Source of the DNA: Octopus vulgaris
Taxonomy: Eukaryota
Assembly (NCBI GenBank): GCA_951406725.2
Contig: OX597825.1
Span: forward strand, 27,094,001-27,158,000
Direction of reading: 5' to 3'
DNA: 64,000 bases
Position numbers and translations under genes: made by a program. The notes below the pieces were generated by a model, which made no database searches, was not told the origin of the DNA, and saw nothing but the letters and a program-made list of their open reading frames with translations. This document shows positions 35,709 through 37,559 of this stretch, one piece after another; the stretch's first letter is position 1, and every line of letters starts with the position of its first letter.

Positions 35709-36867
35709 TTATCATCATTATTTTTATTTTTCTAATTGCGTCTCAGTTATCTGTATAGAACGTGAAATATTTCGCACAATACTTTCAAATGACCAAGATA
35801 TCTCCTGTTTCTTCCATAGTTTGTTGCACAACAACTGTGCCTATCTCAAAAGAAAAAAAATGATTAGAGCATTTCTTTATATCATTAAAAGAAAAACGAA
35901 TGCAAATTTTTAAAGACATTACCAAACTAGCAAAGACAAGAAATTGCAAATTGTGTTCTGTGAAACGTAAACGAGTGAATCATAGATTTCATAATGTATT
36001 GCTAAAGTCCTAGTTTCTTCTAAATGAAATAGCCAACAAATCAAAGGCACAAAAGTAAAACAAAAAAGTAAAATCTATAGGGTATATGGGAGTGAGAAAC
36101 CAAATTAAAGCTAACACAGAAAACTGGTTACATTACTTGGTTATTTGTCAGGATCATTATATACAACGATTTAATTTCGCAACTCAGAATCATGCAGGGA
36201 AATGTGAATGTAGGCTAATGTTTAGCCATAAATCATATAAACATATTAAGATGGTTAGTGTTAAAAATCCAAACACAGAAATACACGCGCGGGCACACAC
36301 ACGCAGAGACAAACCACGCAAACGCAAATATACGCATGCCTTCATACAAATATACATTCACAAACAAGTATGTGTGACGTATATATATATATATATATAT
36401 ATATATATATATGTGCGTGTGTGTATGTGTTAATATATATATATGCATATGAATATATATATGTAACTTAATATACATGTATATATATATGCACATGCCT
36501 ACATATTCATACATATATACGTGTGTGTAAATATGCATATATATATATATATATATATATATATATATATCCATATAACTTAAAGTAGTATACTCTGTTG
36601 AAATCATCTACTAATGCACATGTATAAGTGAATACATATGCACACACACAAATTCGCACGTACATATATACATACACACACACCTATATATACACACATA
36701 TATATATATATCTACACACTCACACACAAACACACATATATATATATACATATATATATATATATATATATATATATATATATATACACACATATATATA
36801 TATATATATATATATATATATATATATATATATATATTATATAATTTGAAACTGACTTATTGGAAGT

Positions 36868-36910
36868 CCACCTGAAGATTGTCGATCAAGACAAGAAACA
36901 ATTGTAGTGG
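36868..36910 (+). ncRNA. Minimal type-I hammerhead ribozyme, copy 1
   Basis: Stem I CCAC/GTGG, core CTGAAGA, stem II TTGTC/GACAA, GAAA, palindromic CAATTG in helix III, GUA cleavage site after 36906. Confidence 0.85.
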
Positions 36911-36975
36911 CGGTTTTTTTGACTATTTATTAAAATTTTATGTATCTCATAATTTGAAACTGACTTATTGGAAGT

Positions 36976-37018
36976 CCACCTGAAGATTGTCGATCAAGAC
37001 AAGAAACAATTGTAGTGG
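36976..37018 (+). ncRNA. Minimal type-I hammerhead ribozyme, copy 2
   Basis: Identical motif 108 nt downstream. Predicted cleavage after 37014. Confidence 0.85.
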
Positions 37019-37559
37019 CGATTTTTTTGACTATTTATTAAAATTTTATGTATTGATTAAGTCTTTCCTTGTTTGTTTTGCAAAATAGTGGTTTTGTCTC
37101 TAATAGTATTTTATATATATATATATATATATATATATATATATGCACATATATTTCAATATACATTTATCTATAGATATATACTTATATAAGGATATAC
37201 GTATATATGCACGAATGTGTTTATTTGGGTGTGTCGCGTGCCCGTTTTCTTATTGTTTAGCCACCATTATTATCGTATGTTGTTTTTACGAGAACTAAAT
37301 TTTTTAAAACTGATGTTTACATCGTTATGCCCTTTCACTTCGGCATAGTTACAATTCACTTCCTTACTTCAGTTATGATTCAATAACTAGTAATGCACAT
37401 TTAGATGCAAATATGTTGTGTCTCATTCTTAATAAATATACATAATCTTCAAATGTATTTACACACATGCATACGCACATGTATGTATGTGTGTGTTTTC
37501 GTGTGTGTGTATTTATATCGTCTTCGTTGGCTACTCTCTATTGATGAGTATTTCTTTTG

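Follow-up and report, generated by a model that had tools for sequence, protein, structure and literature searches.

A tandem hammerhead repeat in the Octopus vulgaris genome is probably part of a spliced Penelope-like retrocopy

Results

The tandem repeat and its surroundings

We analysed a 64-kb stretch of the 2.8-Gb Octopus vulgaris assembly (C12:27094001-27158000, hereafter the window, to which all position numbers refer), in which a tandem repeat at 36841-37053 carries two hammerhead ribozyme motifs. The repeat is no new circular-RNA element of 108 bases; it is a common kind of transposon fragment. Very probably it is the 5' part of a spliced retrocopy, devoid of an open reading frame (ORF), of the pseudo-long terminal repeat (pLTR) of a Penelope-like element (PLE), which was inserted into a (TA)n microsatellite and carries an extra 105 bp likely gained by a template switch.

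Tandem Repeats Finder (TRF) described 36841-37053 as a repeat of period 108 with 2.0 copies, 99% matches and a score of 419. Over element positions 1-105 the two copies differ only in G36913 against A37021. With one difference in 105 nt, and with (AT)n and (TA)n tracts called by TRF on the two sides, the near-identical copies, (TA)n flanks and recent insertion of a preliminary description of this DNA are borne out. The upstream copy begins at the usual 5' end of the family and stops, unlike other copies, at position 105. The bases that follow position 105 are CTC behind the first copy and the parental TGA behind the second. Across position 1 the parent sequence reads ...tttcacttc|ATAATTTG. No ORF was found in the repeat unit, and the rest of the parent element was not found elsewhere in the 64-kb window. 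The parts of the locus are as follows.

36736..36840, no strand: (AT)n/(CA)n microsatellite, the insertion target (TRF; (AT)n called at 36736-36843)
36841..36945, plus strand: upstream partial copy, element positions 1-105 (100% identity to positions 1-105, the reference copy)
36858..36859, plus strand: putative exon 1/exon 2 junction of copy 1, ACTT/ATTGG (in long copies a 1.1-1.8-kb GTAAGT...TTTTAG intron lies between)
36868..36910, plus strand: hammerhead motif 1 with palindrome ACAATTGT, predicted cleavage after A36906 (sequence, folds, 492 identical genomic copies)
36946..36948, plus strand: CTC junction of 3 nt between the copies (TC equals the two bases preceding position 1 in the parent)
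36949..37111, plus strand: downstream copy, a short-form element covering positions 1 to ~171 and entering (TA)n (98% identity to reference 1-171)
36966..36967, plus strand: putative exon 1/exon 2 junction of copy 2 (as for copy 1, from long copies)
36976..37018, plus strand: second hammerhead motif, same sequence as motif 1, cleavage predicted after A37014 (sequence, folds)
37112..37191, no strand: (TA)n, element tail and/or target microsatellite (TRF; a (TA)n end is common to the family's two size classes)

Genome-wide arrangement of the family

To place the repeat within its family we fetched the 30 best matches to the 108-nt query, a choice biased toward copies with a complete 5' part; 27 of these loci were distinct. 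Similarity extended beyond position 105 (tgattaagtctttcc...) in all 30. The elements fell into two size classes, ending at ~171-180 or at ~262-275, both in (TA)n. The boundary of the 108-bp repeat is not a unit boundary, and copy 2 of the window continues into the rest of the element. (TA)n flanks were present in most of the 30 loci, many family copies adjoin (TA)n on both sides, and the copies are 97-100% identical.

The exact motif occurs mostly in head-to-head inverted pairs or as single copies: the 27 distinct loci comprised 18 inverted pairs, 8 single copies and 1 direct pair, that of the window. Searching the genome for direct motif pairs with a gap of 55-75 nt returned the window locus and no other. 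Widening the gap to 76-330 nt added three pairs (L032-L034), each with its own breakpoint: one is arranged as [1-186][1-262], one as [22-171]...[2-262], and one is scrambled. In all three the upstream copy is cut on its 3' side and a fuller copy lies downstream. The genome-wide search for 108-bp arrays that had been suggested earlier thus gave one pair and no arrays, and circularly permuted copies of the family were not seen. The preliminary description had itself named a partial pLTR duplication, rather than a retrozyme, as the reading to adopt if other copies were only single PLE termini. This comes close to the data, in which inverted pairs stand beside the single copies.

The inverted pairs (L003-L030) usually combine one arm of 1-262 with one of 1-171/180. 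The shorter arm ends inside the element where the sequence is rich in TA, in keeping with a second complementary DNA (cDNA) primed there by the (TA)n target. Two further loci showed other structures. At L169 (C2:14408430-14408749) a 5' part of the ORF (...SRKEFK...) is joined straight to element position 100, an internal-deletion derivative, and at L111 (C8:73218249) a fragment of the element is followed by A19 and then by AGTGGCGG....

Short copies lack an intron

Long copies were found through pairs of minus- and plus-strand motifs lying 1.3-9 kb apart, and five such regions were fetched. Between the motifs, all five consist of inverted arms with 93-99% identity (in L038, 953-3735 and 8496-5712 match at 99.5%). 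Only positions 19-262 of the element run uninterrupted to the 3' end in the long copies; positions 1-18 (ATAATTTGAAACTGACTT) lie 1.1-1.8 kb upstream. Directly after positions 1-18 we found gtaagt in 7 of 7 occurrences, covering all five long loci; position 19 was preceded by ...tattgatattttag or ...ttaaaatattgatattttag in 10 of 10 arms of the same five loci. On the ribozyme strand, GTAAGT...TTTTAG has the sequence of canonical 5' and 3' splice sites, and the short element would therefore be exon 1 joined to exon 2. An origin of the long form by insertion into the short form was considered and rejected, as GTAAGT and polypyrimidine-AG at the boundaries, read on the ribozyme strand, speak for an intron. 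Allowing at most 1 mismatch, the genome holds 363 spliced junctions and 332 unspliced 3' splice junctions, with 0 matches for the reversed controls.

Most short copies begin at position 1 or at most 6 nt upstream (...cacttc|ATAATTTG), while L006 and L020 retain more of the parental upstream sequence. From these 5' ends we infer a transcription start within the pLTR at about position 1. Some long copies carry two to three tandem ~1-kb repeats of promoter, exon 1 and intron (L035 1513-4599, C3:3985500-3991500), each with its own ATAATTTGAAACTGACTT|gtaagt.

The parent is a ~6.3-kb Penelope-like element

A partner Penelope element sharing the end of the repeat, which the preliminary description had proposed to look for, does exist: it is a PLE of ~6.3 kb with an 840-codon frame for a reverse transcriptase (RT) and a GIY-YIG nuclease. 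It starts ~50-75 nt upstream of the ATG. Behind the frame lie ~3.7 kb with exon 1, the intron, exon 2 with the hammerhead, and a TA-rich end; exon 2 begins at position 19, and the hammerhead follows the intron end by ~9 nt. In the centre of L038 we found an A+T-rich frame closing with a Cys-rich stretch and VVYK...VYIGST...R..H. The DNA of this frame gave 494 first-look candidates in the genome, and the 40 that were scored are 97-100% identical. The copy at L084 has the frame uninterrupted over 840 codons (P0002), with the RT motifs FIQIDID, PTGAPDS and YRDD followed by VVYK...VYIGST...R..H. Its codons are very A+T-rich, and an Asn/Lys-rich low-complexity insert of ~100 aa (residues ~497-605 of P0002; L084 4137-6659) separates the RT/thumb from the nuclease.

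The 840-aa protein has 20 homologues with E values down to 1.5e-140, the only named one being from Octopus bimaculoides (63% identity over 12% of the query). A 781-aa protein encoded in the same genome gave a collinear hhalign alignment of 571 columns to the profile of the 840-aa family (probability 95.9%, E 5.7e-9); for this protein Pfam reports GIY-YIG at 30.6 bits (cut-off 22.6) and RVT_1 at 28.9 bits, just below the cut-off of 29.6. The nuclease stretch taken alone aligned GIY, YIG, R and H with E 3.6e-4 and a probability of 36.8%. BLASTP between the 840-aa protein and the 781-aa PLE protein was not significant (best E 0.21), and Pfam searches returned no RT or GIY-YIG in the long-copy ORFs, even at E<=10, or in four homologues. 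We putatively assign the 840-aa protein to the PLEs on the profile-profile alignment, the visible motifs and the architecture of the element. As to this architecture, in L083 the 5' end of the full copy immediately follows an upstream partial copy ending in ...CCCTAATATTTATTATT, which makes a direct pLTR, and L084, L082 and L038 have an inverted upstream copy with arms 99% identical. The family is young and abundant in the Octopus vulgaris genome, and may already figure in the element lists of the supplementary files of Craig et al. 2021 (PMC8557442).

Thirty GIY-YIG loci were also examined as possible partners, but they are members of a different PLE family, and only two similarities of ~100 nt (82-85%) came to light. 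This second family is likewise young, with many copies holding an open 781-codon frame (e.g. L085 1445-3790, C16:20835300-20841800); GIY-YIG candidates in the genome numbered 6136 at first look. Beside one copy of the 781-codon PLE, at L051, there is a candidate minimal hammerhead with different helices. Within the window, 6621-6695 and 39037-39190 share 81-87% identity with sequence found downstream of the 781-codon frame (L085 4850-5004) and are probably old fragments of that family.

The hammerhead motif

Each copy of the repeat reads CCAC-CTGAAGA-TTGTC(GATCAA)GACAA-GAAA-CAATTG-TA|GTGG. The helices are in type-I order, with helix I formed by CCAC/GUGG (4 bp) and helix II by UUGUC/GACAA (5 bp) under a 6-nt loop. 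In both copies the core is as expected at C3-A9 (CUGANGA), G12-A14, A15.1-U16.1 and A17. The stretch from A15.1 to U16.1 is ACAAUUGU, a perfect self-complementary palindrome that could form a dimeric helix III of 8 bp. The pair 10.1-11.1 is U-A in place of the usual G-C, which can be had by a shifted register only with extra bases before G12; judged from sequence, helix II has 5 bp if the first U after A9 is paired and 4 bp if it is bulged. The preliminary description had seen a tandem pair of complete minimal hammerheads (TRF gives 2 x 108 bp, with motifs at 36868-36910 and 36976-37018) of the Penelope-like type-I kind with a palindromic helix III, predicted to cut after 36906 and 37014. All of this agrees with the motif sequence, the ACAAUUGU palindrome and the cofolding. 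Its statement that all core nucleotides are intact holds for the positions listed above and fails at 10.1-11.1.

Folding of the 43-nt monomer gave a non-hammerhead structure of -6.5 kcal/mol as the lowest-energy state, with the hammerhead structure 1.1 worse at -5.4. Two 43-mers, in contrast, cofolded at -22.0 kcal/mol, against 2 x -6.5, into a double hammerhead joined by the 8-bp helix III. The two ACAAUUGU palindromes also pair with each other when the 213-nt tandem is folded (lowest energy -30.1 kcal/mol), and these predictions agree with the dimer model in the literature. Dimer cleavage of such hammerheads was reportedly also described by Lunse et al. (2017).

Genome-wide, the exact 43-mer has 492 matches (242 plus, 250 minus), against 0 for the reversed control, and a scan that takes the stems into account gave 0.02 matches per shuffled locus. 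A loose pattern of the core alone matched the window 17 times where 6.5 were expected, a number reached by 6 of 100 shuffles and not significant. We count the motif as non-random because of its genomic copy number and setting, not because of the core pattern alone. At the gathering score, the Rfam hammerhead models gave 0 matches in the whole window; at E<=10, the interval 36700-37200 gave 22 matches, 0 of them hammerheads, which were microsatellite-driven look-alikes of miRNAs. The Rfam models describe canonical hammerheads with a closed helix III.

Other features of the family touch the motif. GACUU at the end of exon 1 and AAGUC in exon 2 can form a 5-bp hairpin abutting helix I (36854-36868 and 36962-36976); it is possible in spliced RNA only and is present in the predicted lowest-energy fold. 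A second large subfamily has G at element position 60 (GAAACGATTGTA; e.g. C1:13258851 and C1:37425766), the 32-mer search giving 423 matches, nearly all with G. This G replaces A-U by two G.U pairs in the dimeric helix III and keeps the helix. The same A>G difference, at 36900 of the window, occurs in contigs from 3 of the 4 sequencing runs compared. The contigs of these four runs yielded short fragments, none of which covers the whole stretch, and among the 24 runs listed no holder of the stretch is recorded as RNA. Not all copies have been kept intact: in the upstream pLTR of L083, GTAA replaces GAAA.

How the tandem arose

We most likely owe the extra upstream copy of positions 1-105 to a template switch during reverse transcription. 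In this scheme a pLTR transcript would start at or near position 1 and lose its intron by splicing. The PLE enzyme would then nick (TA)n and prime on the TA-rich 3' end or on an internal TA-rich site, and inverted pairs would result from twin priming or snap-back. On reaching the 5' end of the RNA, the enzyme would jump to position 105 of a second template and copy this to its 5' end, and the product of such a jump would read [1-105]-CTC-[(-2)1-171]. Several points weigh against this reading. There seems to be no clear microhomology at position 105 for the switch, and CTC would be explained in part, TC matching the parent and the first C not. In the usual partial tandem of PLEs the upstream copy is truncated at the 5' side and retains the 3' end, whereas here the cut is on the 3' side of that copy. 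Ribozyme activity, splicing in this species and the start of transcription are all read from DNA copies. Pfam finds no RT or GIY-YIG in the 840-aa frame even at E<=10, a profile search of solved structures with the 840-aa family returned nothing relevant, and the U-A pair at 10.1-11.1 departs from published PLE minimal hammerheads.

Alternatively, ~108 bp might have been duplicated in tandem after the insertion, by replication slippage or unequal exchange beside (TA)n. The long microsatellite tract is prone to slippage, and copies with one difference in 105 nt are what a late duplication would leave. Such an event should also leave the same three bases after each copy, whereas we observe CTC after one and the parental TGA after the other. 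Moreover, the upstream copies of L032-L034 are likewise cut on the 3' side, each at a different breakpoint, and therefore point to an event that recurs at insertion. Because the bases behind the copies differ and these three loci have a similar structure, we regard a later duplication as improbable. Still harder to credit is the proposal of the preliminary description, a genuine 108-nt retrozyme-like unit whose tandem transcript cleaves itself twice, is ligated to a 108-nt circle and spreads through it. It draws on two intact motifs spaced 108 nt apart and on predicted folds in which the ACAAUUGU palindromes pair (within the 213-nt tandem, and between two 43-mers as a double hammerhead at -22.0 kcal/mol). 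Published animal retrozymes also stem from PLE pLTRs, and the consensus lengths of 51-972 bp given in the preprint of Li, Clavereau & Pollet (2026, 10.64898/2026.07.22.740005) include 108 nt, a size that had been called small for such units. Yet the period is unique in 2.8 Gb and forms no arrays, and copy 2 runs past the repeat boundary, beyond position 105, into the rest of the element. Copies derived from circles should be circularly permuted, and those of this family never are; most extend upstream past the cleavage site to position 1 and include the exon junction (363). The window copy also has no promoter region. A spliced pLTR copy of a PLE, enlarged by a template switch, remains the reading that we prefer, and a retrozyme-like unit appears very improbable to us.

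Would the ribozymes cleave?

The window copy lacks the upstream promoter region, and its two ribozymes are therefore probably silent unless read through. Were they transcribed, the two motifs would probably join in an 8-bp helix III formed by ACAAUUGU, and a 108-nt RNA could be set free. We expect cleavage activity to be low, with U10.1-A11.1, to judge by the reported conservation of this pair, as a further handicap.

A record of cleavage could be present in the 5' ends of retrocopies, since a cut after A66 should give some cDNAs beginning at G67. For each position we searched the genome for any unexpected base followed by the next 31 nt, and sorted the matches by eye into true ends or junctions on the one hand and point mutations or indels on the other. 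Position 61 was unusable as a control because it matched the 423-copy subfamily variant. Element positions 65-68 correspond to 36905-36908 of the window, and the loci of the census are L086-L091 and L110-L133. The counts, by first retained position, were as follows.

Position 47: 1 true end; 4 matches
Position 57: 1 true end; 2 matches
Position 64: 1 true end; 3 matches
Position 65: 6 true ends; 8 matches inspected of 9
Position 66: 4 true ends; 5 matches
Position 67: 6 true ends (arms) in 5 loci; 6 matches
Position 68: 4 true ends; 6 matches
Position 69: 0 true ends; 2 matches
Position 72: 1 true end; 10 matches
Position 81: at least 6 true ends; 12 matches inspected of 26
Position 90: 8 true ends; 11 distinct junctions among 12 loci fetched, 24 matches in total
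Position 100: 6 true ends; 12 matches inspected of 29

At L089/L090 both inverted arms start exactly at GTGG (G67), with AATATT between them. Three of the six ends at position 65 abut (TA)n, and all four at position 66 are flanked by an A-run, (CA)n or 'taa', so that in these cases the true end could be 67. The A/T-rich positions 81-100 are a stronger hot spot of 5' ends than 65-68 and have no ribozyme to explain them. We therefore treat the cluster at 65-68 as a hint only and not as evidence; near the predicted cut, it is a weak hint of cleavage in vivo.

These ends bear on the possibility that the motif resembles a hammerhead in sequence, is inactive, and is carried along within the terminal sequence of the PLE. 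The features that speak for inactivity are U10.1-A11.1 in place of G10.1-C11.1, a helix I of only 4 bp, the absence of an Rfam hammerhead match, and the poor cleavage in vitro of PLE minimal hammerheads in the part of Cervera & De la Pena 2014 (PMC4209133) that concerns them; most retrocopies, moreover, namely the 363 with the exon junction, come from RNA uncut at the site. The motif nevertheless sits where PLE hammerheads have been reported, in the pLTR beside the end of the intron, the dimer helix is retained, by G.U pairs, in the subfamily with G at position 60, and 20 retrocopy 5' ends fall at positions 65-68, against 0-1 at each of five nearby controls. On balance we think an inactive motif unlikely, if a possibility of some weight. 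More tentative still, and in our view doubtful, is the specific proposal that a minimal hammerhead with U10.1-A11.1 cuts its own RNA in vivo, inefficiently as a monomer, and that this is recorded in the 5' ends of retrocopies. Were it true, the hairpin found only in spliced RNA beside helix I could link splicing to folding of the ribozyme, and the tandem in the window would be one of a small number of loci from which a defined 108-nt RNA could be released.

Discussion

The window locus is best regarded as a transposon fragment that was dead on arrival, and the label '108-nt retrozyme' should not be carried forward. Its value lies in the family behind it, a PLE whose copies run to hundreds, nearly identical and about evenly divided between spliced and unspliced. 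They point to the likely start of transcription, to a long pLTR intron and to the RNA intermediate, and their 5' ends offer a way to ask, from DNA only, whether PLE hammerheads cleave in vivo.

Processed retrocopies lack the introns of the spliced transcripts from which they are made and share a common 5' start, and twin priming of LINE-1 produces head-to-head inversions. The short copies described here resemble both in being intron-less, in their shared 5' start and in their head-to-head inversions. They differ in the machinery, an RT and a GIY-YIG nuclease of PLE type, and in priming on (TA)n, not on poly(A).

With metazoan non-LTR retrozymes, as the pertinent parts of Cervera & De la Pena 2020 (PMC7229834) and of the 2026 preprint present them, the copies have in common that they are non-autonomous, A+T-rich and derived from PLE pLTRs, with a type-I hammerhead predicted to work as a dimer. 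Unlike these retrozymes, they form no head-to-tail arrays of a constant monomer, the 492 motifs including four direct pairs with four spacings. They also start at the presumed transcription start and are not permuted, and they are known here from DNA.

Closer parallels come from PLEs themselves. The relevant sections of Cervera & De la Pena (2014) describe pLTRs in direct or inverted orientation, pLTR hammerheads acting as dimers, and retained introns; they report low activity in vitro of the minimal hammerheads and call G10.1-C11.1 'highly conserved' (PMC4209133). As in those minimal hammerheads, ours is of type I, has a 4-bp helix I and no stable helix III as a monomer, and could form a dimeric helix III through the palindromic 15.2-16.2 pair plus loop (PMC4209133). 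Its place is likewise the pLTR, and it too is dispersed as many single copies and as pairs on opposite strands ~100-700 bp apart; it differs from them in the 10.1-11.1 pair, U-A here and G-C there. In Penelope of D. virilis the same source places the intron end at the 5' side of helix I; in our element it lies nearby, 9 nt upstream. Helix II has 5 bp and a 6-nt loop, whereas 7-8 bp have been reported for Schistosoma.

The sections of Craig et al. (2021, PMC8557442) on pLTRs place the transcription start and an intron within the pLTR of PLEs such as Penelope and Chlamys-3. They report a 5'-truncated copy lying inverted at the 5' end, pLTRs that carry hammerheads, and a preference for (TA)n targets, and consider the function of PLE hammerheads still unclear. 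The intron of our element, at 1.1-1.8 kb, is far longer than the 75 bp given there for Penelope. Unlike the endonuclease-bearing (EN+) PLEs of that account, the parent frame is extremely A+T-rich, contains an Asn-rich insert of ~100 aa and escapes the Pfam models RVT_1 and GIY-YIG. In its order of parts it agrees with the EN+ families Penelope/Poseidon, Neptune and Nematis, with an RT, a Cys-rich linker (CTCRDKSNCILNNNC) and, at the C-terminus, a nuclease of GIY-YIG-like type (PMC8557442). Its Cys-rich linker and (TA)n target may hint at a Neptune-like clade. It further shares with EN+ PLEs the direct or inverted pLTRs, an inverted copy abutting the 5' end, a hammerhead in the pLTR, a retained intron and a bias toward (TA)n targets (PMC8557442).

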